The notes: a model not told the origin generated them from the letters alone. A stretch of 64,000 bases of DNA from Candidatus Collierbacteria bacterium RIFOXYD2_FULL_45_13 (GCA_001774685.1 MFAS01000001.1:159557-223556), one strand, 5' to 3'; counted from the first letter of the stretch, positions 3,903 through 56,748 are shown. Numbers and translations: made by a program.

Positions 3903-5645
3903 CTACTTCTTTTCAATATTAAACAACCCGCTCTTGAGAGAAATCCATCCCGGAGCCCGGATATTGAAGACTTTCTTAAACTCCGAACCGGACATCTCCA
4001 CAGCACCTTTATTGGTCTCAAAATGAACATTGGCTGTGTAACCTCCGTCTGAATATGTCACACTCACTCCACTTACACTACTATAACCACCACCTACACT
4101 TTCAGCCTTACTCCTCAAGTCGCTCATGCTGTACGGATTGTCTCCACCACAACCACCCAAGGGTAAGACTCTCGAGTCTGAACCGTTTTTCAAAACTTTC
4201 CAAGCGTTCAATAAATCTGCCATTTCTTCTGAAGTTAACCAGGGGTGGCTTCTGCCGCAACTGGCTCCACTACTGCCTTTGTACCAAGCTTTGTAAAACC
4301 AAGGGCTACCGGCAATTTTTTCATAAGCCTGTGACGTCCAACCCGACCTTCCATTTGAAGTATCCCAAAAGGCGGATGTGGTATATCCGGCATAGCTATC
4401 GGTATACGACTCTTGATATCCACCGGAAGTCGACGCATACCAAGATTTGAATGGTTTTCCGTTGGCCATCATTACCCATCCCTTAGTCGCATTCACCGCC
4501 TCCTCCCACTTTCCACCCTTATTCGCATTCTTGTAAACTTGACATGCCTGAGTCGTACAAATCGCTCCTCCGTTTCCTTGATCGGTCCAAGCCAGAGCGT
4601 AAGATCTAGCCGCCACCGCTTGGGCCTTCAAGGCCTCCATTCCGCCACTATCCCCCCAACCACCTGGCATCTCGTAAATTCTTTTTACATATGTTTCAAT
4701 ATCCATCCGACCATATCCTTGGACGCTGATTTGTTTACCGGCATCATAATCCTTTTTTATCTCTACGCCTCCATAATAAGCATGTAATATTTCCTCGGCG
4801 TTTTGACCAGACTTGGCCCGCCCATAAGCTCCGTACTGGCTCATTCCCTTGAAGTGTGGCGCTCCGAAGGAAAACGCCGCGAAGGCAGGAGAGAAGCCAG
4901 GATTATAATCCGGCCGCGAAGCCGGATCATCTGCCAACGGTACATCTCCCACTGTAGTAGAAAAAGTTCCTTGTTTCTCGGCCAAGATCGCCGCCTGCTT
5001 GGCCGATAGTGCCGCAATCTTTCCCGACAAATCACTCTGAAAGGCTTTGGCCTTTTTTACCTCGGCTTGAAAAAAAAGGTTTTGTTTGTCCAGCTCCGCC
5101 TGCAGTTTACTAAGCTGTTCCTTTTGTTTTTCCAGAGTTTTTTTATCTTCTTCCAGTTGGCCAATTTCTTGAACCAAGCTCACAATTACTTGCCTGTCTT
5201 TATCATTACTCTCTTGTCTGTAAGCCAGTTCCCTCCTAGTTTGTCCCATGCTCGTGCTGGAAAGCAAACTCACCCACAACGGTTCGGATCGCAGTCGGAT
5301 ATACATTCCTCTTATCTTCACCGCCAATACCATGTATTGCGTCGACACTTTTTCACTTCTGTCTTTAATTCCAATTTCGGTCGTTTTTAGTTTGGCCAGA
5401 GCCGTGTTGATCCCTTTTTGTAAGGCTGCTATCCTGGATCCCAGTTTTTTGACCTCCGTTTCCAAAGGCGCGGTCGCCGCCAGTGACATATCTAGTTCTT
5501 TTTGCGATTCATTTTTACAAATCTCCAGCTGATCAATCGCCAAATTGTTGATATTCCCCTCCGAACAATCAATCGCCTCAGCCGAGTTAATGCCAGCAAA
5601 AAGGCCCACCCCTAATACCACCACTAATAAATACCGCCACTTCAT
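3903..5645 (-). CDS. SpoIID/LytB-domain protein with N-terminal signal peptide and coiled-coil region
   Basis: Signal peptide MKWRYLLVVVLGVGLFAGINSAEA. The SpoIID/LytB motif is HFKGMSQYGAYGRAKSGQNAEEILHAYYGGVEI, and ASTSGGYQESYTDSYAGYT is also present. Confidence 0.75.
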   Translation of the reverse strand: MKWRYLLVVVLGVGLFAGINSAEAIDCSEGNINNLAIDQLEICKNESQKELDMSLAATAPLETEVKKLGSRIAALQKGINTALAKLKTTEIGIKDRSEKVSTQYMVLAVKIRGMYIRLRSEPLWVSLLSSTSMGQTRRELAYRQESNDKDRQVIVSLVQEIGQLEEDKKTLEKQKEQLSKLQAELDKQNLFFQAEVKKAKAFQSDLSGKIAALSAKQAAILAEKQGTFSTTVGDVPLADDPASRPDYNPGFSPAFAAFSFGAPHFKGMSQYGAYGRAKSGQNAEEILHAYYGGVEIKKDYDAGKQISVQGYGRMDIETYVKRIYEMPGGWGDSGGMEALKAQAVAARSYALAWTDQGNGGAICTTQACQVYKNANKGGKWEEAVNATKGWVMMANGKPFKSWYASTSGGYQESYTDSYAGYTTSAFWDTSNGRSGWTSQAYEKIAGSPWFYKAWYKGSSGASCGRSHPWLTSEEMADLLNAWKVLKNGSDSRVLPLGGCGGDNPYSMSDLRSKAESVGGGYSSVSGVSVTYSDGGYTANVHFETNKGAVEMSGSEFKKVFNIRAPGWISLKSGLFNIEKK

Positions 5646-6505: not shown

Positions 6506-7216
6506 ATGGCCACCCTACCAAAACACATTGCAATTATGATGGACGGTAATCGCCGCTGGGCACGTACCAAGGGCTTAGACCCTGTAAAAGGTCACGAATA
6601 CGCCGCCAATCACACTATAGAACCGCTGATTGAAAAATGTGCTGATCTGGGCATACCTTATGTCACCTTTTGGGCCTTTTCAACCGAAAACTGGAAACGG
6701 GAGGAAAAAGAGGTCCAAGGCATCCTAGAGATATTCCGACTTGCCTTTGGAGCCCTTGCCCTTCGCTTTATCAGCAAAGGAGCCAAATTGCATATTCTTG
6801 GAGATATGAGTCGATTTCCAAAGGATATCGTCAACAAATCACTTGAGATGATTGCGAAGTCTTCAAAAAATAACAAGATCACGGTCTCCTTTGCCCTCAA
6901 CTATGGAGGTCGTGACGAGATTGTCCGGGCCGTTAAAAAAATAGTTGCTGAAAAAATTCCCGTTAACCAAATCAATGAAGAAGCTGTCTCGACCCACCTC
7001 GATACTGCTGGTATGCCCGATCCGGATCTTGTCATCCGCACCGGCGGAGAACGACGTACCTCAGGCTATCTCCCCTGGCAATCTGTTTACTCCGAACTAT
7101 ATTTCACTCCCATTCTATTTCCCGACTTCACTCCCGACCAACTCATGGAAGCTATTAACGACTTCTCCCAAAGAGATCGCCGATTCGGCGGGAATTCCAC
7201 CCCAAAGACGAAATAA
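6506..7216 (+). CDS. uppS: undecaprenyl-diphosphate synthase (isoprenyl transferase)
   Basis: HIAIMMDGNRRWARTKGL ... NYGGRDEIV ... RTGGERRTSGYLPWQSVYSELYF are canonical UppS motifs. An extended -10 TGGTATAAT lies 10 nt upstream of the ATG. Confidence 0.9.
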   Translation: MATLPKHIAIMMDGNRRWARTKGLDPVKGHEYAANHTIEPLIEKCADLGIPYVTFWAFSTENWKREEKEVQGILEIFRLAFGALALRFISKGAKLHILGDMSRFPKDIVNKSLEMIAKSSKNNKITVSFALNYGGRDEIVRAVKKIVAEKIPVNQINEEAVSTHLDTAGMPDPDLVIRTGGERRTSGYLPWQSVYSELYFTPILFPDFTPDQLMEAINDFSQRDRRFGGNSTPKTK

Positions 7217-7462: not shown

Positions 7463-8611
7463 CTATACCTCCCTCTCCACCATATACCTCGCAATCCCCT
7501 CGAGGTAATCGATCGCTTCTTCATTTAACCCCTTACCTCTCAAAGAAGCCGCCGTATCCGCGGCTTTGGCCGCATATTTTCTGGCTACATTTACGGAATA
7601 GGTATGTGCCCCGCTTTCTCTGATCGCCAGTTTTGCCGCCTCTATATCGCCATCCTCCGCCATGAGTTTTCCCCAAACTTTTAACAAGGCCTCCTTTTGG
7701 TTTTCTGTTCCCATCTCCATAACTTTCACAACGAGGAGTGTCACTTTGCCTTGCAATAGATCCGAGTTGGCGGATTTTCCGATTTTTTCTTCGTTGCCAT
7801 AGACACCTAGTACATCATCCTGCAGTTGAAAGGCTATCCCGCCGTCCACCGAATACTTACTTAGTATTTCTAAGATATCTTCCGGCAAACCAGCCAGCAA
7901 ACCGCCAACCATCAAGGGGTTTTCGTATGTATAGATTGCTGTTTTGGCTCTATGCAAGCTCATCACCTTTTCTTCCGTTATCTCTCCTATTTTTGACAAA
8001 CTCACATCGTACGCTTGTCCAAAGGCCGTATTGGTAATTCCTCTCAACACTTGTTTCATTATTCTTTGAATCTTTTCTCTGTCGGAACTACACTCTAACA
8101 ATCTTTCAAATCCTAAGCACAAAATAGCATCCCCGACATTCACGGCCATCGTGTCTCCATAATGAGCATCTCCTTCGCCAAAAAACTCTTGGGTTGTGGG
8201 TCTCCCCCTCCTTATTTTGTCTCCATCCATAAAGTCATCGTGCATTAAAAGAGCCGTGTGCACCAGCTCCACCGCTTCCGCCGCTCTCCACACCCCCTCC
8301 ATATTTTCGAATTTTTGATTTTTTGATTTTTTGAGTTTTTTCCCCAGCCGATATCCATAAATCACAAAGGCTGACCTTGCCCTTTTTGCCGATCTCAAGT
8401 TGTGTTCCTTGCTGTGACACAATATTTTGTGTACCAGTTTCTTCTGTGTCGGATTAAAACCAAAATTTTTCTCAATTTCCTCATCCCAATATTTATTCAA
8501 TCTCAAATCCATTTCTTTAGCCAATTCCATCAACCTTGCTTTCGCCCACTCTCCTAGCTTGTTTGTTACCATGTGTCCAATTTTACTGTAAAATATTCGT
8601 ATGGTTATCAA
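7463..8611 (-). CDS. polyprenyl (farnesyl/geranylgeranyl) diphosphate synthase
   Basis: First Asp-rich motif LLMHDDFMDGDKIRRGRPT and second motif FQLQDDVLGV. The N-terminal region contains a KKLKKSKNQKF stretch encoded by the TTTTTGA repeat. Confidence 0.85.
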   Translation of the reverse strand: MITIRIFYSKIGHMVTNKLGEWAKARLMELAKEMDLRLNKYWDEEIEKNFGFNPTQKKLVHKILCHSKEHNLRSAKRARSAFVIYGYRLGKKLKKSKNQKFENMEGVWRAAEAVELVHTALLMHDDFMDGDKIRRGRPTTQEFFGEGDAHYGDTMAVNVGDAILCLGFERLLECSSDREKIQRIMKQVLRGITNTAFGQAYDVSLSKIGEITEEKVMSLHRAKTAIYTYENPLMVGGLLAGLPEDILEILSKYSVDGGIAFQLQDDVLGVYGNEEKIGKSANSDLLQGKVTLLVVKVMEMGTENQKEALLKVWGKLMAEDGDIEAAKLAIRESGAHTYSVNVARKYAAKAADTAASLRGKGLNEEAIDYLEGIARYMVEREV

Positions 8612-8921
8612 AACCTCTCTTGCCGCAGAATCACTGGAGAACCTCTATGCTCCAGCCAAAGCCTTGAGCGGGGGTAGTGGGGCCACTCTCGCCAAACTCA
8701 TCAATCCTCTGATATACAACGTACTTATTATCTCCGGCCTGATTGCCTTTATTGTCATCATCATCGCTGGCTTCAACTATGTTTCGGCAGGTGGTGACAA
8801 GGGCAAAATTGAACAAGCACAAAACATGCTAAACTATTCAATAATAGGCCTGATATTAGTCGTCCTCGCCTTTTTAATTACTCGGGTCATTGGAGCGATC
8901 TTCGGCTTTAAATTCTTTTAA
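8601..8921 (+). CDS. T4SS pilin-like protein (VirB2/TrbC-like), paralog
   Basis: TM1 (LIISGLIAFIVIIIAGFNYV) - loop SAGGDKGKIEQAQN - TM2. The GGDK loop motif is shared by the tandem paralogs. Confidence 0.6.
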   Translation: MVIKTSLAAESLENLYAPAKALSGGSGATLAKLINPLIYNVLIISGLIAFIVIIIAGFNYVSAGGDKGKIEQAQNMLNYSIIGLILVVLAFLITRVIGAIFGFKFF

Positions 8922-8926
8922 CAAAA

Positions 8927-9286
8927 ATGAACATCCTCAACCAACTTATCAATAGTGCTTATGCCACCGATGTCATTGGCACCATTGATTTACCCGCCGG
9001 AATCCCCAAAGAAACCAGCCAGACCACCGACATTATCTCGGCCCTTATTCGTTTTATCGTTGTTGTGGGCGGAGTTTTTGCCCTTTGGCAATTACTGTCC
9101 GGGGGTTTTCAATTTATCAGCTCCGGCGGAGACAAAGGTAAGTTGGCCGAAGCTCAAAATAAAATTACCATGAGTCTGGTCGGCCTAGTCATCATCGCCG
9201 CCAGTTTCATCATCATCGCCATTATCAGCAAGGTTCTTTTTGATGATTTCGGAGCCATCCTCGCCCCCAAATTACAATCCATCTGA
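8927..9286 (+). CDS. T4SS pilin-like protein, paralog
   Basis: Loop FISSGGDKGKLAEAQNKIT between two TM helices. Confidence 0.6.
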   Translation: MNILNQLINSAYATDVIGTIDLPAGIPKETSQTTDIISALIRFIVVVGGVFALWQLLSGGFQFISSGGDKGKLAEAQNKITMSLVGLVIIAASFIIIAIISKVLFDDFGAILAPKLQSI

Positions 9287-9287
9287 T

Positions 9288-9653
9288 ATGAACAGATTCA
9301 TCCCTACCATACACGCCGCCGACATACCTCTTGGATCAGAAGTCGGTGGAGTAGGCCCTTTTCAAACAGCCATCAGTGGAGGAGTACAGGCCGGACTTGG
9401 TAATTTGCTCTCTAATCTTATTACCACCATGACCGTCATCGGAGGTCTAGCCTTTGTTGTCTATTTCTCGCTTGGAGCGCTCGAATGGATTACCGCCGGT
9501 GGAGACAAAACGAAAGTCTCCGGTGCCCAAACCCAGATGACTCAGGCCGCCATCGGCTTGATCGCCATTGTCGCCTCCTACTTTATTATCGGTATCGTCG
9601 GAGCTGTACTCGGTTTTGATATTCTCAATCCGTTTGCCGCACTAAAACTCTAA
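9288..9653 (+). CDS. T4SS pilin-like protein, paralog
   Basis: Loop WITAGGDKTKVSGAQTQMT between two TM helices. The start is taken as the ATG at 9288, right after the upstream TGA. Confidence 0.6.
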   Translation: MNRFIPTIHAADIPLGSEVGGVGPFQTAISGGVQAGLGNLLSNLITTMTVIGGLAFVVYFSLGALEWITAGGDKTKVSGAQTQMTQAAIGLIAIVASYFIIGIVGAVLGFDILNPFAALKL

Positions 9654-9659
9654 ATATTT

Positions 9660-10010
9660 ATGTCTATCACAATCATCCGCCCCGCCCACGCTGTCAACGA
9701 AATTGTTAACAGAGCCCTTTCTCCCAATGTCCCTCAAGATCCCGGTGGCGGTTTGGCTTTTTATATAGCCAGTCTCTGGCAAACAGTTGTCACCGTCGGA
9801 GGAATTGCCTTTATCATCTATCTAGTCTGGGGCGGTATCGAGTATCTCACCTCCGGTGGGGACAAGGCCAAAATTGATGACGCCCAGAAAAAAATCACCA
9901 GTTCGGTTATCGGTGTCGGTATTTTAGTTGCCTCCTACGCCATTACCTATTTCATTCAAGCTGTCTTCAAGATTAATATTCTCAAACCTGTTTTTCCCAG
10001 CGCACTATGA
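9660..10010 (+). CDS. T4SS pilin-like protein, paralog
   Basis: Loop YLTSGGDKAKIDDAQKKIT between two TM helices. Confidence 0.6.
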   Translation: MSITIIRPAHAVNEIVNRALSPNVPQDPGGGLAFYIASLWQTVVTVGGIAFIIYLVWGGIEYLTSGGDKAKIDDAQKKITSSVIGVGILVASYAITYFIQAVFKINILKPVFPSAL

Positions 10011-10366
10011 TATTCCAAAAACTTTCTCAGGTATTTGCCGCCGATATCGAGCTCCCTATTGGAGAAATGGCCACCAAAAATAACTTTTTCGGCTATACCT
10101 GTATCGGACATCTCGTCAGCAATCTCGTCGCCGCCGCTTTTATCGTTGCCGGTATCGCTTTCTTTGTCTATCTCGTCATGGGAGGCATCCAGTGGCTTAC
10201 TTCCGGCGGAGACAAGGGAAAAATTGAGTCATCCCAGAAGATGATCTCTGCCGCCCTGATCGGCCTAGCCATCGTCGCTTCTAGCTATGCAGTCTATATG
10301 ATTGTTCTCACCTTCTTCGGTATCAATCTAGACGCCCTCTGTACCGACAATCCTCTCGGTAATTGA
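10007..10366 (+). CDS. T4SS pilin-like protein, paralog
   Basis: Loop WLTSGGDKGKIESSQKMIS between two TM helices. There is a 4-nt overlap with the upstream gene. Confidence 0.6.
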   Translation: MIFQKLSQVFAADIELPIGEMATKNNFFGYTCIGHLVSNLVAAAFIVAGIAFFVYLVMGGIQWLTSGGDKGKIESSQKMISAALIGLAIVASSYAVYMIVLTFFGINLDALCTDNPLGN

Positions 10367-10428
10367 CAATTAAAAAATCATATATAATAGTCAGTAATAC
10401 GCATAACAATTATTAAAAAATAAAAAAC

Positions 10429-10770
10429 ATGTCTTTAATTCCTCAAGCATTGGCAGCAGCTGGCACCATCGGAGTTCCCCAACCGACAGGTATGAAGATC
10501 ACCGATATTGGCGTCCTTATCAGCCGTGTTATTTCTCTAGCTTTCATCGTTGCCGGTATTCTCACTTTCGCTTTTCTCGTCATGGGAGGCATTGAGTGGC
10601 TTACTTCCGGAGGAGACAAGGGCAAAACCGAACAGGCCAGAAATCGTATCACCGCCGCGGTTGTCGGTCTTGCGATCGTGGCTGCTTCCTGGGCTTTAAT
10701 GAAACTAATCGCCTATTTCTTTGGCGTTGATGTCTTCGAGGGAAACATCAACATCCCCAAACCCTACTAA
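10429..10770 (+). CDS. T4SS pilin-like protein, paralog
   Basis: Loop WLTSGGDKGKTEQARNRIT between two TM helices. Confidence 0.6.
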   Translation: MSLIPQALAAAGTIGVPQPTGMKITDIGVLISRVISLAFIVAGILTFAFLVMGGIEWLTSGGDKGKTEQARNRITAAVVGLAIVAASWALMKLIAYFFGVDVFEGNINIPKPY

Positions 10771-30217: not shown

Positions 30218-31597
30218 TTAAGTGTATAACGCTTGCTTCAAAGCCATCACCTTTCGCCGTATATCCATGTTTTTTTCAATTTCCAGTTCCATTTTATCGC
30301 ATGCATGCATGACAGTGGTGTGATCTCGACCTCCCATTAGTTCTGCCACCTCCGTTAAGTTTAGTTTTAATGTTTCTCTCAGAATGTACATCGCGATATG
30401 TCTCGCCACTACCAAGTCAGCCTTCCGGCTTTCTCCTAAAAGATCTTTGTTTCTAAAATCAAAATACTTAGCCACAGTCGAAATTACCTTGATCGGTCGC
30501 ACCTTAATATCTTTCACTGTATTGGCCGGGAGTCCCATCGTCTGCTGAACCATCTCTCTCGTCAAGACTCCTCCGTCAATACTGGCTCCTGTTGCCAGTC
30601 TGACAAAGGTACCCTCAAGCTCGCGGGCGTTCGTTGGGAAACTATTAGCAATCAGTTCAAAGGCACTATCCTCAACCTCAGCTTTAATATCCAGCGCCCG
30701 CTGGCGCAATATCGCCACTCTCATTTCATAATCCGGTAATCCAATGTCCACCATCATTCCTCCAAGGAACCTGCTTCGCAGTCTATCCTCCAAACCGACA
30801 ATCTCCTGAGGCTTCCGGTCACTTGTCATGATGATCTGTGCTTGTTTATTTGTCAGCTCGTTAAAAGTATGGAAAAACTCTTCTTGAGTTGAATCCTTTC
30901 CACCAAAGAATTGGACATCGTCTACTAGTAGCGCTCCCACTTGCCGGTATTTCTTTTTAAAGGCATCCGTCATTTTTGATTTGAAAGAACCAACCAGGTC
31001 GTTAGTAAATTGCTCACTGGTCACACAGACTACTTTACCAACTCCTTTTCTGACTAGTTCGTGCCCTACAGCATGCATCAAATGTGTCTTCCCTACTCCG
31101 ACCCCTCCATAGATAAATAGTGGATTGTGTCTGGTGCCCGGGTAATCTACCACTGCTTTGGCCGCCGCAAAAGCTAAGCGGTTCGAACTCCCCACCATAT
31201 ATGATTCAAAGACGTAACGCGGGTTTAGATTAGTTCCTGTTTGTCTATTCTCTTCCGGCGGAGTAAAAAGTCCAATATTTGTCTCCCTAATCTCAGAGTC
31301 TTTAAGCTCTTTCTTACTGGCCTCAACTTCTCTTGTTGCCTCTACCACAACCAAGGCCATATCACATTTCTTGCCGGTGATCTTCTCCGCTGCCTGTTTG
31401 ATAATGCTGTAATACTTGGTTTCAATGGTGTGGCTTAAGAACATCGAAGAGGCCGCCAGTTCTAAAAGAAGTCTTTGTTCGTCAATTGGTGTCACCGATC
31501 TGAGAAAACAAGGCTTGATAAAGCCCGCAAAACTGGCGGGAGACATGGAAACACCTAACTCGCCGCAAATGCTATGCCACAACTTCTCACTGTCCAT
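30218..31597 (-). CDS. dnaA: chromosomal replication initiator DnaA
   Basis: Walker A FIYGGVGVGKTHLMHAVG. Box VII/DNA-binding domain region ARHIAMYILRETLKLNLTEVAELMGGRDHTTVMHACDKM. Likely start MDSEKLWHSICGEL at 31597. The longest ORF extends to 31672. Confidence 0.9.
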   Translation of the reverse strand: MDSEKLWHSICGELGVSMSPASFAGFIKPCFLRSVTPIDEQRLLLELAASSMFLSHTIETKYYSIIKQAAEKITGKKCDMALVVVEATREVEASKKELKDSEIRETNIGLFTPPEENRQTGTNLNPRYVFESYMVGSSNRLAFAAAKAVVDYPGTRHNPLFIYGGVGVGKTHLMHAVGHELVRKGVGKVVCVTSEQFTNDLVGSFKSKMTDAFKKKYRQVGALLVDDVQFFGGKDSTQEEFFHTFNELTNKQAQIIMTSDRKPQEIVGLEDRLRSRFLGGMMVDIGLPDYEMRVAILRQRALDIKAEVEDSAFELIANSFPTNARELEGTFVRLATGASIDGGVLTREMVQQTMGLPANTVKDIKVRPIKVISTVAKYFDFRNKDLLGESRKADLVVARHIAMYILRETLKLNLTEVAELMGGRDHTTVMHACDKMELEIEKNMDIRRKVMALKQALYT

Positions 31598-31721
31598 ACG
31601 CCCATTCTCACTACTTATCCACATTTTTACAACCCCCAATTTACCCAAAAAGAATAATACTATCCACATCACCTCCTTTGAGGGTATAATGTCCTGTTCC
31701 CATCAATGTTAAAATAATCAT

Positions 31722-31859
31722 ATGCCCAAAAGAGTCTACCAACCCAAAAAAGTCAAACGTATTAGAAAACACGGTTTTCGTATTAAGATGGCCAGTGCCT
31801 CAGGTCGTAATGTCATCAAACGCCGACGTGCTAAGGGTCGAACCAAGTTAGCGCTCTAA
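31722..31859 (+). CDS. rpmH: 50S ribosomal protein L34
   Basis: Translation is [45 protein letters not shown]. It is below the 60-aa ORF-track cutoff. Confidence 0.85.
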
Positions 31860-31860
31860 C

Positions 31861-32250
31861 ATGCCACTTCCGGCCATAAACCGGCTTCCCTTACGCAAAG
31901 AAAGAGATCGTCTCACCCGTGAAGGAAAATCTTTCCACACCCGCCACTTCACCCTCGTCACCGCCCCTATCCCCGTCATCCCGATCTCTTCGTCATTGCG
32001 AGGAGGCAAAGCCGACGTGGCAATCTCACTCCATCAAGTTCCCCGCTTCTCCATCCTGCTCTCCAAAAAAACCGCCCGTCTCGCCGTCGACCGCAATCAA
32101 ATCAAGCGTGTCACCTCTGCTCTCCTGGCCGAACTCCACTCCCAATTCCCTTCAGCCGACTACCTGGTCATCCCCAAACGTTCCGTCCTCAACACCCCTC
32201 ACTCAGATCTTCTCTCCGACCTCTCCTCCCTCCTCCCCAAGCTCAAATAG
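31861..32250 (+). CDS. rnpA: RNase P protein component, with an in-frame 22-aa insertion derived from a dispersed repeat
   Basis: Position immediately after rpmH. ...FTLVTAPIP[VIPISSSLRGGKADVAISLHQV]PRFSILLSKKTARLAVDRNQIKR carries the RnpA signature KKxxxAVxRNxxKR. The bracketed segment is encoded by repeat copy 31991..32033. Confidence 0.7.
   Translation: MPLPAINRLPLRKERDRLTREGKSFHTRHFTLVTAPIPVIPISSSLRGGKADVAISLHQVPRFSILLSKKTARLAVDRNQIKRVTSALLAELHSQFPSADYLVIPKRSVLNTPHSDLLSDLSSLLPKLK
31991..32033. repeat. structured dispersed repeat, copy 2 (inside rnpA coding sequence, in frame)
   Basis: cgtcattgcgag-gaggcaaagccgac-gtggcaatctcactcca. Both flanks are nearly identical to copy 1 at 578..623. 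Confidence 0.5.
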
Positions 32251-32368
32251 TTACATCCTCCGACCTCTCCCTGACATCCCATAACTATCTTTTTGCCCGA
32301 TTTGAAGGTACAATCCCCTCTTAGAACGCATCCGCACTCTAAAAAGGAGAATTTACCCATGTCATGGA

Positions 32369-32776
32369 TTGACGACGCCAAAAAACAAGCCGAGCTCAAG
32401 CACATTCAGGAAAGTTATTCCCGAAGATATTGAAGCCATCGAAAAAGTATTAGAAAAATCAAAGGATGAAGGAATAATAATAGTTTCCGTCAAAATGGGA
32501 CGAAGTGGAGATGGTAGTCTTCGAGAAGTTGGAAATTTTGAGCAACTGAGGCATCGTGGTACAAGTATGGGTAGTGATATGGGCGAATCTGACTACGATT
32601 ACACTAGTTGCTTAGTCATTCAATGGAATTTGAGATTTAGAAATGAGAACGGATCTTTCTGCGAGAAGGAATTAAATTTGGGTATAAATTGTGAAGATAA
32701 CACTTTTGTACCAACAATGACCGCAAAAGAATTTGAGGAAGAAATACGGAAATGGCTTGTCAGCATATTTTATTAA
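32369..32776 (+). CDS. hypothetical protein (135 aa, TTG start); possible frameshifted gene
   Basis: An SD (aaggag) plus ATG at 32359 opens a 24-codon frame (MSWIDDAKKQAELKHIQESYSRRY*). The long ORF is in another frame. No domain recognised. Confidence 0.3.
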   Translation: MTTPKNKPSSSTFRKVIPEDIEAIEKVLEKSKDEGIIIVSVKMGRSGDGSLREVGNFEQLRHRGTSMGSDMGESDYDYTSCLVIQWNLRFRNENGSFCEKELNLGINCEDNTFVPTMTAKEFEEEIRKWLVSIFY

Positions 32777-32826
32777 CAACAAAACTACCAACAGGGTTCA
32801 CCACCTTGTTTTTTTATTGTCAAGAA

Positions 32827-32886
32827 CCCGTCATTTCGACCGAAGTGGAGAAATCTCAAAGTATTCGCATCAAAATGGAGTGAGAT
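32827..32886. repeat. degenerate copy or copies of the structured repeat, partly inverted
   Basis: cccgtcatttcgaccgaagtggagaaatctca ... tggagtgagatc. The last part is the reverse complement of the ATCTCACTCCA arm. Confidence 0.35.
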
Positions 32887-33000
32887 CTTCCCCTACGGGG
32901 ATCAACGAGACTCACTAAACTCGAGATGACAAATAAATAATACTTAACTCCAATAATGCTAATTATTGACTTCGGGTATCTTATGGCATAAATTAAATAT

Positions 33001-33837
33001 ATGCCCAAAAAAGTAATTGATCCTACCAAGATCGCTATTTTTCAGAAGAAAGAAATCCGCAAAACCATTTACAAAAACGAATGGTGGTTTGTGATTACTG
33101 ATATTGTAGTGGCCTTAACCGATTCCGTTCAACCTGTCGGATATATAAAAGATATGCGACGCAGAGATGAACAACTCTCCAAAGGGTGGGGGCAGATCGC
33201 CACCCCCCTTTCAATCGCAACCAGTGGAGGTAATCAAAAGATAAATTGTGCCAATACAGAAGGCATCTTCCGAATCATCCAATCGATCCCCTCTCCCAAA
33301 GCCGAACCATTCAAGCGTTGGCTGGCCAAAGTCGGCTACGAAAGAATCCAAGAAATAGAAGATCCGGAACTCGCCCAAAAAAGAGCCAGAGCCATTTACA
33401 AAGCCAAAGGCTACCCCGATAGTTGGATAGAAAAACGCATAAGGTCAATCGCTATTCGTGAAGATCTCACCGAACAATGGGAAATTCACGGAGTCAATCT
33501 CCAAAAGGAATATGCCATTCTTACGGCCGAAATCTCCCAAGCCGCTTTTGGAGTCACTCCCTCACAACACAAACAGATAAAGGGATTGGAAAGACAAAAT
33601 CTCCGGGATCACATGTCCGACCTGGAACTACTCTTCTCCATGCTAGGGGAAGCTTCCACTACCGCCATTACCAAGACCGAACACCCCAAAGGTTTCACCG
33701 AAAACAAAAAGGTCTCTCGTCGAGGTGGAAAGATCGCCGGAGATGCTCGGGTAAACCTGGAAAAAGAAATCGGCCAGAGTGTTGTCACACCCAAAAACTT
33801 CCTCCCCAATCAAAATGACAAAAAGAAACTAAAATAA
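33001..33837 (+). CDS. Bro-N domain protein (phage antirepressor-like, KilA-C-type C-terminus)
   Basis: EIRKTIYKNEWWFVITDIVVALTDSVQPVGYIKDM...GNQKINCANTEGIFRIIQSIPSPKAEPFKRWLAKVG is the Bro-N signature. The gene is inserted between rnpA and yidD. Confidence 0.7.
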   Translation: MPKKVIDPTKIAIFQKKEIRKTIYKNEWWFVITDIVVALTDSVQPVGYIKDMRRRDEQLSKGWGQIATPLSIATSGGNQKINCANTEGIFRIIQSIPSPKAEPFKRWLAKVGYERIQEIEDPELAQKRARAIYKAKGYPDSWIEKRIRSIAIREDLTEQWEIHGVNLQKEYAILTAEISQAAFGVTPSQHKQIKGLERQNLRDHMSDLELLFSMLGEASTTAITKTEHPKGFTENKKVSRRGGKIAGDARVNLEKEIGQSVVTPKNFLPNQNDKKKLK

Positions 33838-33840
33838 TCA

Positions 33841-33880
33841 GTCATTCCCGACCTGAGTGGGCCTCTGCTACCCGAAGAGG
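33841..33880. repeat. weak, degenerate copy of the structured repeat
   Basis: gtcattcccgacctgagtgggcctctgctacccgaagagg shares GTCATT and taccc-gaa with copy 1. Confidence 0.25.
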
Positions 33881-33906
33881 TAACTCTATACAAATTACTC
33901 CAAAAA

Positions 33907-33925
33907 TTTGATTTTTTGAGTTCTT
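33907..33925. repeat. TTTGATTTTTTGAGTTCTT repeat, intergenic copy
   Basis: Same TTGAGTTYT / TTTTTGA family as 10831..10861. Confidence 0.4.
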
Positions 33926-33970
33926 CCGCAACACAAATGTAAAATATACAATGTAAAATCTAAAATATTT

Positions 33971-34222
33971 ATGATTTCTTTTTACCAAAAATATATCTCT
34001 CCCTATTACCACACACTAGGCCACGCTCTATTTGGCAATTCCTTTGCCTGTCGCTTCTCCCCTACCTGCTCCGAGTATGCCAAAGAATCCTACCGCCTTC
34101 ATGGTATCATTATCGGGACAAAACTCAGTCTCGGCCGTTTTCTCCGTTGTCAACCCTTTAGTAAAGGAGGAATCGACCCCGTCCCACCCCGCCAAGCGGC
34201 AGGGCCTGCTAAAATCAAATAA
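33971..34222 (+). CDS. yidD: membrane protein insertion efficiency factor YidD
   Basis: ISPYYHTLGHALFGNSFACRFSPTCSEYAKESYRLHG is the YidD signature. Confidence 0.8.
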   Translation: MISFYQKYISPYYHTLGHALFGNSFACRFSPTCSEYAKESYRLHGIIIGTKLSLGRFLRCQPFSKGGIDPVPPRQAAGPAKIK

Positions 34223-34224
34223 CT

Positions 34225-34962
34225 ATGCTCGCACCAATTAACTACGTCCTCTATCAAATCCTAGTCTTCTTTTATAGTCTTTTTGGTGGCAATCTCGGTT
34301 TGCCTATTATCGCCATCACCCTTATCACCAAATTCCTATTAATCCCCTTCGTTCTTCCTTCGATGAAGTCTGCGAAAAAAATGCAGGAACTCAAGCCGGC
34401 TTTGGATAGACTCAAAGAAAAGCACAAGGACAAAAAAAAACTCCAAGTGGCTCAAATGGCACTCTACAAAGAGCAAGGTATCAACCCTGCCGCCGGCTGT
34501 CTACCTCAGATAGTTCAAATTATCATTCTTATTTCCCTCTACCAGGTCTTCATGGAGTTCATCAAACAGCCTTCCATCGGAGGTCTTCTCGTAAATCCTC
34601 ACTTCCTTTATCTGGATCTTACCAAGCCGGACCACACTTATATCATGCCTGTGCTGGCCGGAGTCACTCAATTCATCTTTTCGCTTATGATGCAGTCCGG
34701 CGTCGAGTCCCATATTCAAAACCCCAAACAGAAAGAAGAAAAGAAAAAAGAAGAGAACAGTTTGGAAATGGCCACCAGTATGCAGCAACAGATGCTCTAC
34801 ATGATGCCCGTTATGACCGTTATCATCTCCCTGAACTTCCAGTCTGGGCTTATCCTCTACTGGGTCGTCTCCACCATTTTCTCGATTGTTCAGCAATACT
34901 ACTTCTCCGGCTTGGGAGGTGTAAAACCCTTCCTTCTTAAATTAAGGATTATCAAACAGTAA
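34225..34962 (+). CDS. yidC: membrane protein insertase YidC (short form)
   Basis: PIIAITLITKFLLIPFVLPSMKSAKKMQELKPALDRLKEKHKDKKKLQVAQMALYKEQGINPAAGCLPQIVQI is the YidC/Oxa1 core. Position after yidD. Confidence 0.8.
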   Translation: MLAPINYVLYQILVFFYSLFGGNLGLPIIAITLITKFLLIPFVLPSMKSAKKMQELKPALDRLKEKHKDKKKLQVAQMALYKEQGINPAAGCLPQIVQIIILISLYQVFMEFIKQPSIGGLLVNPHFLYLDLTKPDHTYIMPVLAGVTQFIFSLMMQSGVESHIQNPKQKEEKKKEENSLEMATSMQQQMLYMMPVMTVIISLNFQSGLILYWVVSTIFSIVQQYYFSGLGGVKPFLLKLRIIKQ

Positions 34963-34966
34963 TAAC

Positions 34967-35428
34967 ATGGACCAATCAAAGGTTACCGAAATACTTTCCA
35001 ACGTTTTAACTCAGCTGGAGCTTAACGAGGATCAAATCAAAATAGAAGTTGTCGACGAGGACAATATCAATATTCTCCTGACCCCTTCTACAGACGCCGC
35101 CGGTATCTTTGTCGGACATCATGGTGAGGGCCTGGCTTCTCTCCGCATGATTTTCTCTCTTATGATCTACCAACGCTTCAGTGTCTGGCCCAAACTTCAC
35201 ATCAACGTCAACGACTACCAGGAGCGTCGGGAAGATTCGCTCAAAGAACTCGCTCAAGACGCTGCGGATAGAGCCGTCTCTCTCCAAAAGGAAATAATCC
35301 TTCCCAACCTCAGCTCTTTCGAGCGACGCATTATCCACCTGTTTCTTGAAGAGTACAAGGGAGTCCGCACCGAGTCCCGTGGTGAAGCCCCCTACCGCCA
35401 AATGGTCATCATCCCCACCGCCGAGTAA
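34967..35428 (+). CDS. jag: Jag/KhpB (EloR) RNA-binding protein with KH and R3H domains
   Basis: R3H motif LSSFERRIIHLFLEEYKGVRTESRGEAPYRQMVI. Conserved yidC-jag order. Confidence 0.75.
   Translation: MDQSKVTEILSNVLTQLELNEDQIKIEVVDEDNINILLTPSTDAAGIFVGHHGEGLASLRMIFSLMIYQRFSVWPKLHINVNDYQERREDSLKELAQDAADRAVSLQKEIILPNLSSFERRIIHLFLEEYKGVRTESRGEAPYRQMVIIPTAE

Positions 35429-54808: not shown

Positions 54809-56748
<1,940 letters not shown>

Follow-up and report, generated by a model that had tools for sequence, protein, structure and literature searches.

The 1.72 kb that separate rnpA from yidD in a 64-kb stretch of the genome of Candidatus Collierbacteria bacterium RIFOXYD2_FULL_45_13 (the window; MFAS01000001.1:159557-223556) carry a small frameshifted gene, here called ORF-X, and a gene for a 278-aa protein with a Bro-N domain, both set within the conserved rpmH-rnpA-yidD-yidC-jag operon beside dnaA. 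We consider it probable that this segment is a lineage-specific accessory islet, a small hot spot of gene flux in one subclade of Candidatus Collierbacteria that has been remodelled by recombination, and not a transposon, a prophage remnant or a cassette bounded by repeats. What we observed are the anatomy of the segment, its ancestry, its variability among relatives and an incongruence of silent sites between the Bro-N gene and the core genes.

The islet would have arisen in one subclade of Candidatus Collierbacteria and have been reworked later by recombination, and it would be built from four modules: ORF-X, which is restricted to the clade, is shortened at its 5' end and frameshifted here, and ends at a conserved intrinsic terminator; hairpin repeats resembling repetitive extragenic palindromic (REP) elements and drawn from a clade-wide family; a self-contained gene of the DinD family, the promoter of which is its own and stands where leaderless translation would need it; and a rebuilt promoter of yidD. 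The DinD-like gene would be exchanged as a unit running from promoter to stop codon, and also in segments smaller than the gene, presumably through homologous or illegitimate recombination after DNA uptake and with no enzyme of its own.

A variable islet in a conserved operon

Fifty-three loci around relatives of YidC were fetched and annotated by tblastn; L numbers denote the loci compared here, and L105 is a metagenomic locus. In the eight more distant Collierbacteria-like relatives (L017-L024, YidC 64-74% identical) rnpA is followed by yidD after a gap of only about 5-130 nt, and their closeness there marks the adjacency of the two genes as ancestral, as had been supposed in a first-pass annotation made from the sequence of the window alone. 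Since these distant relatives retain the ancestral arrangement, the 1.72 kb found here are, to judge from that comparison, a lineage-specific gain in a conserved operon beside dnaA.

Within the subclade whose YidC is at least 84% identical, together with L105, the gap measures 0.8-2.5 kb and its content varies. Read from rnpA to yidD, it holds the frameshifted ORF-X and the Bro-N gene in the window; ORF-X, a frameshifted Bro-N gene and a HIT gene in L008; a 125-aa open reading frame (ORF), a 63-aa membrane ORF, the Bro-N gene and a HAD gene in L009 and L097; a hairpin and a Bro-N gene with an internal deletion in L010; HAD, HIT and Bro-N genes in L001, to which L013 is equal; the Bro-N gene alone in L011, and the Bro-N gene in L105; a 63-aa ORF, a degraded HAD gene and a 112-aa ORF in L007; and ORF-X, a 111-aa ORF and a HAD gene in L016. 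All the HAD and HIT genes, as well as the 112-aa and 111-aa ORFs, are on the minus strand. Seven of the nine informative species-level genomes carry the Bro-N gene in this gap, L007 and L016 being those without it, and in L001 it lies on the opposite side of the HAD/HIT genes from the side it takes in L008 and L009.

The same conserved flanks, a content that varies among relatives and an outgroup site that is empty are the properties of a variable islet flanked by core genes, and on this evidence from gene order the islet is a variable locus common to many species, not a strain-specific insertion. Window positions 31600-34300 are moreover identical in four independent assemblies. It had been noted in advance that relatives with the same genes in the same place would speak for an ancient conserved arrangement; the Bro-N gene does recur at this site, but content and order vary, hence there is no fixed ancient arrangement. 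The taxon labels of the homologues are unreliable: the Collierbacteria-like contigs of L008, L013, L015, L017-L019 and L021-L026 are titled "uncultured Pseudomonadales bacterium", and because L008 bears this label, the "Pseudomonadales" labels on homologues of the Bro-N gene are clearly wrong.

Probable exchange of the Bro-N gene

At third codon positions the window and L008 are 96% identical over codons 1-28 and 83-230 of the Bro-N gene, as against 57% over dnaA, yidC and jag, and a second pair, L001 and L010, is 80% identical in the Bro-N gene as against 51% in the core genes. Codons 29-82 (33085-33246, 54 codons) are unrelated between the window and L008 (30%). For this segment at least three versions are known, mutually very divergent (about 26-30% identity) although the rest of the protein is 90-98% identical, and it may represent an exchangeable specificity module. 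From these patterns of similarity, the behaviour of the Bro-N gene is that of an accessory gene, one that recombination exchanges and that is lost now and then.

A purely vertical history would explain the same locus by one ancient and larger islet followed by differential loss only, the appearance of exchange being an artefact of codon bias and of chimerism in metagenome-assembled genomes (MAGs). It would be in keeping with the left junction of the hairpin element at 32830-32886, TTTTTTTATTG-TCAARAACC-GTCATT, in which a terminator precedes TCAARAACC-GTCATT and which the window shares with L009, the counterpart in L008 lying within a block of homologous DNA; with the promoter, common to all ingroup copies; and with third positions of the Bro-N gene that are somewhat more conserved than those of core genes in all pairs. 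Such a history accommodates poorly the placement of the Bro-N gene on either side of HAD/HIT, the two independent pairs in which silent sites agree at 80-96% in this gene as against 51-57% in core genes, and the versions of codons 29-82 (type A and type B subdomains), which are distributed without regard to core-gene similarity. We regard it as unlikely.

Boundaries of the shared unit and hallmarks of mobility

The window has a block of DNA in common with L001, L009, L010 and L011. Its left end, at 32962-32966, coincides with the -35 hexamer TTGACT or precedes it slightly; its right end, in copies with an intact 3' end, is the stop codon of the Bro-N gene or a point a little before it, and in L010, with its internal deletion, it is at 33690. 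L007 and L009 can be compared as an empty and a filled site: between the terminator T-tract and the stop codon of the HAD gene there is GATC in L007 and 993 nt in L009, and these 993 nt comprise the hairpin repeats, the promoter and the ORF plus a single additional base, with no duplication and no inverted ends.

The first-pass annotation had proposed a small mobile or phage-derived cassette. A discrete cassette of this kind, bounded by copies of a structured repeat and inserted recently into the rnpA-yidD operon, would agree with the outgroups that lack the insert, with the occurrence of the Bro-N family in phages (PHROG 15286; 29 IMG/VR loci at 35-58% identity; four phage records), with the repeat copies between modules and with the indel between L009 and L007, which is made of hairpins plus a gene. 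The expected hallmarks were nevertheless not found. No integrase or transposase is among the genes called within 6 kb on either side, there are no phage genes near the Bro-N gene, no pair of terminal inverted repeats bounds the insert (the longest arms, 19 nt at 79%, are located elsewhere), and no target-site duplication was found at the ends of the insert or in the comparison of L007 with L009. The candidate duplication ACTCCAAtAAT / ACTCCAAaAAT was not supported, its first copy lying outside the shared cassette block. Nor does the gene have the features of an integron cassette, a promoterless ORF ending in an attC hairpin and arrayed beside an integrase: it has its own promoter-like site, no integrase is near, and no hairpin follows the stop codon in L001, L009, L010 and L011.

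The composition of the insert, which had been suggested as a check, is host-typical for the Bro-N gene (GC 0.452, z -0.2; GC3, the GC content of third codon positions, z -0.1; codon score above the genome mean), and AT-rich for the 135-aa frame of ORF-X, ORF135 (GC 0.373, z -2.4). One of the supposedly bounding repeats lies inside rnpA, and repeats of the family occur where the islet is absent (the L020 spacer) and in L014. The Bro-N gene has no adjacent hairpin in L001 and L011, and among 80 metagenomic loci of the gene, hairpin motifs were found upstream in 3 of 71 and downstream in 2 of 73. With the Bro-N gene also present at the same locus in most of the related species, the cassette is largely refuted, and we consider it very unlikely.

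Another form of mobility would make the DinD-like gene a selfish, free-standing gene of homing type, the product of which cuts or marks genomes that lack it, whereupon repair copies the promoter-to-stop unit in. Homing would account for tight boundaries, for spread and for a position between essential genes, and it finds some agreement in the sharp, gene-sized limits of the unit, in silent sites that are incongruent with the flanks, in solitary copies in many unrelated contexts, two of them 4.7 kb apart on one contig, and in Bro-N itself, known as a DNA-binding module of proteins of mobile elements and matched here to viral Bro-N proteins by Foldseek. On the other side, no nuclease domain (LAGLIDADG, GIY-YIG, HNH and others) was found in the 278-aa protein by Pfam, PADLOC, PDB sequence search or Foldseek, the flanks are not co-converted (yidD and rnpA are 79-92% identical where the Bro-N gene is 98% identical), and long-term purifying selection fits a function of benefit to the host better than it does a decaying homing gene. 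We judge homing to be improbable.

Some points weigh against the islet reworked by recombination that we prefer. The search for recombinases covered the 64-kb window only; several of the relatives are fragmentary MAG contigs, with L012, L014 and L015 ending at yidD; the promoters and the terminator were recognised solely by their match to a consensus; and the 98% block shared by the window and L008 could in principle have arisen through chimeric assembly of a MAG from a co-assembly. Chimerism of this kind is a caveat for any one pair taken singly; the second incongruent pair, L001 and L010, argues against it.

The DinD-family protein

The 278-aa protein is, by profile similarity, a member of the DinD family and of PDC-S13. 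It has a conserved layout of a Bro-N domain at about residues 10-110 (Pfam match at residues 19-110) and a helical, DinD-type C-terminal domain, and it matches over its full length both the PADLOC PDC-S13 model PDLC04920 (E 2.7e-110; its residues 9-276 align with positions 5-275 of the 286 in the profile) and PHROG 15286 (E 3e-82); weak PHROG matches to anti-repressor Ant families span the first 100-165 residues or so, including the Bro-N domain. E. coli DinD (taken from NC_000913.3) likewise has a Pfam Bro-N domain and matches two PDC-S13 models, PDLC04919 (E 2e-121) and PDLC04920 (E 2e-16), its residues 122-250 matching the second at E 2.2e-16. A direct BLASTP comparison of the two proteins is weak (E 0.17, 27% over 103 aa), and several homologues of the 278-aa protein are named DinD in the JGI annotation. 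Of the earlier description as a Bro-N/KilA-C protein of phage origin, the Bro-N part stands (PF02498), whereas no KilA-C or ANT domain was found by Pfam (E<=0.01 for the full protein; no family at E<=0.1 for residues 101-278 alone), the C-terminal half being of DinD type, and a phage context is lacking, the nearest relatives being chromosomal genes of the Candidate Phyla Radiation (CPR).

The Bro-N domain is modelled with confidence by AlphaFold2 (predicted local distance difference test, pLDDT, 80-90 over residues 10-110), and Foldseek searches with this model gave matches to viral Bro-N proteins; against the PDB, Foldseek found nothing at E<=0.001, the best match being DdrC (E 0.015, TM 0.21). 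A similarity to flavivirus NS5 polymerase at residues 43-118 (33127-33354; E about 0.007-0.03 in single-sequence and profile searches of the PDB) is marginal and was judged probably spurious.

E. coli DinD is reported to be induced by DNA damage (LexA) and to inhibit RecA filaments. The PDC systems are 145 candidates, untested, that were drawn from genes embedded in known defence systems (bioRxiv 10.1101/2024.01.29.577857). Literature searches on PDC-S13 and on DinD with Bro-N found nothing specific. By analogy with these families, the 278-aa protein would act, like a DinD / PDC-S13 protein, as a regulator or effector that binds DNA, and would be a candidate single-gene modulator of phage defence or of the DNA-damage response. 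Three results count against such an assignment: the C-terminal part of the AlphaFold2 model (residues 120-278) is poor (pLDDT<50), the C-terminal domain has no relative in the PDB by sequence, profile or Foldseek, and no defence system lies within 6 kb on either side of the Bro-N gene.

The protein has more than 8000 homologues, the best 120 of which are 70-90% identical and come mostly from Microgenomates. In comparison with the copies in Daviesbacteria and Blackburnbacteria, amino acids are 72-77% identical and third codon positions about 39% identical (saturated), and the window and the Blackburnbacteria genome are 37% identical in DnaA, 42% in YidC and 55% in L34. Because the protein has kept 72-77% identity despite saturated silent sites, this comparison indicates very strong long-term purifying selection on the DinD-like protein, stronger than on DnaA, YidC or L34. 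Two ingroup copies are damaged near the C-terminus, L008 by a frameshift (7029-7051) and L010 by an in-frame deletion of about 35 aa (4440-4494), through either decay or assembly error. Elsewhere the DinD-like gene stands alone on the chromosome, in surroundings unrelated to one another and at times as two copies, and only 2 of the 80 metagenomic loci have the rnpA-yidD context.

The Daviesbacteria and Blackburnbacteria cassettes have features of their own. A repeated segment of 270-370 nt lies near them, encodes an ORF of 54-57 aa (MLPL..KYYP..EELKEIQEVVYLLACAVMQ..) and is absent from the window; in L090 it forms a direct repeat flanking one DinD-like cassette and two genes. In L090, L091 and L093, about 245 nt of non-coding DNA upstream of the DinD-like ATG are, like the coding region, conserved between Daviesbacteria and Blackburnbacteria (some 80-86% for the upstream DNA), and the cassette there includes a long conserved leader or promoter, unlike the Collierbacteria one.

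The uncharacterised DinD-family/PDC-S13 protein surpasses core proteins of replication and translation in its conservation among Microgenomates, but appears exchangeable and sometimes decaying. This contrast between conservation and accessory status recommends it for functional studies of regulation, of defence or of the response to DNA damage. A bolder proposal, which we hold to be doubtful, is that in Microgenomates the DinD-like gene represents a kind of module not recognised before, one gene in size and running from promoter to stop, which would spread between CPR lineages and recombine there. The Bro-N subdomain of 54 codons would then serve as a cassette exchanged to alter specificity, and the C-terminal domain, nearly invariant and more conserved than DnaA, YidC or L34, would bind some target common to all cells or phages; the islet would be an "immune or regulatory hot spot" of minimal size, close to oriC in genomes that are themselves ultra-small.

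Hairpin repeats and inserts within rnpA

The window contains the pattern GTCATTGCGA-N10-30-GGCAATCT at three places (579, 31992 and 43353, all on the plus strand), compared with no occurrence in 100 shuffles, and more copies were found in L008, L009, L016, L021 and L022. The repeat has an outer stem of 5 bp (ATTGC/GCAAT) and variable inner stems; its predicted folds appear to be hardly more stable than those of shuffled sequence (z -0.7 to -1.5). Members of the family also lie in the rnpA-yidD spacer of the islet-free L020 and upstream of yidD in L014. As far as this distribution allows one to judge, the repeats are a real clade-wide intergenic family and not the ends of a cassette. The copy at 579-616 precedes the tmRNA gene (673-1088) by about 55 nt.

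The proposal that repeat copies bound the insert was thus right about the existence of a family, and the areas at 32827-32886 and 33841-33880 that it named do hold divergent relatives; the repeats are not boundaries, however, and the copy it placed at 31991 cannot flank the insert because it lies within the reading frame of rnpA, about 220 nt before the stop codon. The relative directly 3' of the Bro-N stop codon resembles the first rnpA insert of L008 (GTCATCCCGAGC...GGTACCCGAAGGGGTAGATCTCACTCCA), and it has no counterpart stretch in the relatives. Mobilisation of a cassette by the hairpins, in the manner of attC or REP, was rejected, there being no hairpin beside the gene in L001, in L011 and at most of the 80 metagenomic loci.

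With 129 aa the RNase P protein of the window is 19 aa longer than that of L001 (110 aa). The loop between HFTLVTAP and PRFSILLSKK is the site of differing palindromic inserts, with the frame always kept: two hairpins in L007, two elements in L008 (+40 aa), one in L009, a common one in L010 and L011, and one in the outgroup L021. The inserts add 19-40 residues in at least six genomes, and L001, L016 and the other outgroups are without them. In these differing hairpins, inserted repeatedly and in frame into one loop of the RNase P protein, the CPR clearly have their equivalent of the palindromic elements of Rickettsia (RPE), selfish hairpins in coding DNA; on palindromic repeats of the CPR, literature searches found nothing specific.

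ORF-X, a frameshifted small gene

A frameshift had been suspected in the small ORF that follows rnpA, and the intact homologues in L008 and L016 confirm it by showing the N-terminus in the other frame. The family is defined by intact ORFs of 172 and 173 aa at the same site in L008 and L016 and by three metagenomic proteins, and has a conserved N-terminus (the motif MSxWIxDAxxQA, kept in L008, L016, P0123, P0124 and P0126), a middle that is hypervariable and a C-terminus that hardly varies, PTxTAPEVEAQIKAWLVQIFSEQK, with which the C-terminus of ORF135, PTMTAKEFEEEIRKWLVSIFY, aligns. The window encodes this N-terminal motif in a short ATG frame preceded by a Shine-Dalgarno (SD) motif, just as described at first pass for the 135-aa ORF with a TTG start, and the remainder is in the +1 frame, with about 30 residues of the charged segment missing. 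The frameshifted DNA is identical in four independent assemblies.

ORF135 matches nothing in Pfam, PHROG, NCBIfam or PADLOC, and matched only itself in a word-indexed search of 5.8 billion proteins and in a full HMMER search of 1.84 billion representatives; its placement in a family was possible only because the intact homologues in L008 and L016 allowed an alignment. Its codon score is 0.25 in frame, as against -0.50 and -0.66 off frame, which is coding-like in its own frame only, and ORF-X is one of the few window genes with a strong AGGAG. The spacer between rnpA and ORF-X is homologous to the DNA 3' of rnpA in L008 and L016. The terminator segment that follows ORF-X is 88-92% conserved in L007 and L009, where it stands behind a different gene, and falls within an 87% block common to L008. 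The simplest reading is that ORF-X in the window is probably a decaying gene; programmed frameshifting would be a possible, less simple alternative.

Promoter-like sites and probable leaderless expression

Hexamers resembling a -10 element stand 4-8 nt before the ATG in 10 of 51 window ORFs, as against 4.7% at control positions, and SD-like motifs precede 3 of 51 ATG ORFs, which suggests that leaderless genes are widespread in the window. As -10-like hexamers near ATGs are enriched and SD-like motifs are rare, leaderless expression of the Bro-N gene is plausible, and its mRNA is probably leaderless. The rpmH gene has a -10-like TAAAAT 6 nt upstream of its ATG, and yidD has further TAAAAT hexamers, the nearest 4 nt upstream of its ATG. 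The similarity between the starts of rpmH and the Bro-N gene (22 of 26 nt) was considered as a duplication and rejected, since a third similar start at 55114 and the enrichment of -10 hexamers suggest instead that these genes start in a common leaderless context. From 33935 on, the window shares its sequence with L009. A TTGAGTT repeat at 33907 had been taken for a boundary of the insert; TTGAGT at 33916 is instead the -35 element of the promoter-like site of yidD, and the motif TTGAGTT is common in intergenic DNA, upstream of other genes and also in the rnpA-yidD spacer of L022.

The locus and its neighbours

Coordinates are positions in the whole window, on the plus strand unless stated, and genes were called via Pfam (Table 1). 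Every gene named in the rpmH-rnpA-yidD-yidC-jag cluster at first pass, with the intervening genes, is present by Pfam and ORF calls. Within 6 kb on either side, the neighbours of the Bro-N gene are dnaN, dnaA, rpmH, rnpA, yidD, yidC, jag, RNase H and DUF4012. An Rfam scan of 31500-34300 found no RNA family, the sole match, to psbNH, being below threshold (E 0.17). The composition of rnpA (31861-32250) is odd for the genome, with a GC of 0.564 and a GC3 of 0.654 (both z about 3) and a strong excess of C (GC skew -0.48). At 8700-10700 the window has tandem paralogous small genes of about 350-400 nt each, in 5-6 copies that share a ..GGTGGAGACAAGG.. block.

Table 1. Coordinates of the islet, its flanking genes and related elements in other loci (window positions except where an L number is given)
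Feature	Position	Strand	Basis
dnaA	30218-31672	minus	Pfam
rpmH (ribosomal protein L34), left conserved flank	31722-31859	plus	Pfam PF00468, E 1.4e-19
rnpA (RNase P protein), 129 aa	31861-32250	plus	Pfam PF00825, E 4.8e-16
rnpA-loop insert, window	31975-32037		
Hairpin-repeat copy in rnpA loop (GTCATTGCGAGG...GTGGCAATCTCACTCCA), translated ..SLRGGKADVAISLH..	31992-32033	plus	exact family pattern
rnpA-ORF-X spacer, with AGGAG at 32345-32349, 9 nt before the ATG (32359)	32251-32358	plus	
Short ATG frame, 24 codons (MSWIDDAKKQAELKHIQESYSRRY*), original ORF-X N-terminus, out of frame with the body	32359-32433	plus	
ORF135, 135 aa, TTG start, +1-frame body of the 5'-shortened, frameshifted ORF-X	32369-32776	plus	
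Intrinsic-terminator-like hairpin and T-tract after ORF-X	32790-32817	plus	terminator scan
Divergent hairpin-repeat relative (GTCATTTCGA..GAAATCTCA; itself 32830-32857) and inverted copy of the family tail (ATGGAGTGAGAT)	32830-32886	plus	
Promoter-like site of Bro-N gene: TTGACT, 17 nt, TAAATT, 6 nt, ATG	32966-32994	plus	promoter scan
DinD-family Bro-N gene, 278 aa	33001-33837	plus	Pfam PF02498, E 1.4e-12
Divergent hairpin-repeat relative directly 3' of the Bro-N stop (GTCATTCCCGA...TACCCGAAGAGGTAACTC)	33841-33886	plus	
Promoter-like site for yidD: TTGAGT, 18 nt, TAAAAT	33916-33945	plus	promoter scan
yidD, right conserved flank	33971-34222	plus	Pfam PF01809
yidC	34225-34962	plus	Pfam PF02096
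jag	34967-35428	plus	Pfam PF01424
rnpA-loop insert, L007	L007:6260-6345		
rnpA-loop insert, L008	L008:5190-5320		
rnpA-loop insert, L009	L009:4950-5030		
rnpA-loop insert, L010	L010:3375-3445		
rnpA-loop insert, L021	L021:4040-4100		
Repeated segment near DinD-like cassettes, L090	L090:7514-7780 and 9795-10163		
Repeated segment near DinD-like cassettes, L091	L091:7644-8011		
Repeated segment near DinD-like cassettes, L093	L093:5125-5243 and 8002-8174		

Comparison with known systems

The islet and its DinD-like gene are no new class of system. What they illustrate is the plasticity of CPR genomes of about 1 Mb, in which even the conserved rpmH-rnpA-yidD-yidC-jag operon beside dnaA hosts an islet that appears to be driven by recombination. 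The 278-aa protein shares with E. coli DinD and PDC-S13 a two-domain build, an N-terminal Bro-N domain and a helical C-terminal part of about 160 aa, and the model PDLC04920 recognises both it and the E. coli protein. It differs in that pairwise similarity to E. coli DinD reaches only E 0.17; in that SOS control and an effect on RecA are putative for the window protein; in its setting, PDC-S13 having been proposed from genes within defence systems whereas the window copy is found in a housekeeping operon; and in the exceptional conservation (70-90% identity) of the Microgenomates clade of the family. With the phage antirepressors of Bro-N/Ant (KilA-C) type it has in common the Bro-N domain, the weak matches to Ant-family PHROGs and the Foldseek similarity to viral Bro-N proteins, but it lacks a KilA-C/ANT domain and a prophage context, and its nearest relatives are chromosomal CPR genes, the viral ones being only 35-58% identical.

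The hairpins resemble the RPE and REP elements as dispersed short palindromic repeats with conserved ends, and the RPE in particular through copies that lie in frame within a protein-coding gene, here rnpA, and add a surface loop; they are shorter (about 35-60 nt) with weak stems, and several unrelated subfamilies occupy one and the same rnpA loop. The locus as a whole is closest to the hot spots found between core genes, which are akin to defence islands: the flanks are fixed, content and order vary, the outgroup site is empty, and alleles appear to be exchanged by recombination. The islet differs from these hot spots in being very small, 1.3-2.5 kb with one to four genes, inside the rpmH-rnpA-yidD-yidC-jag operon beside dnaA, in having neither an integrase nor a tRNA, and in carrying HAD and HIT enzymes as cargo in place of recognised defence systems.

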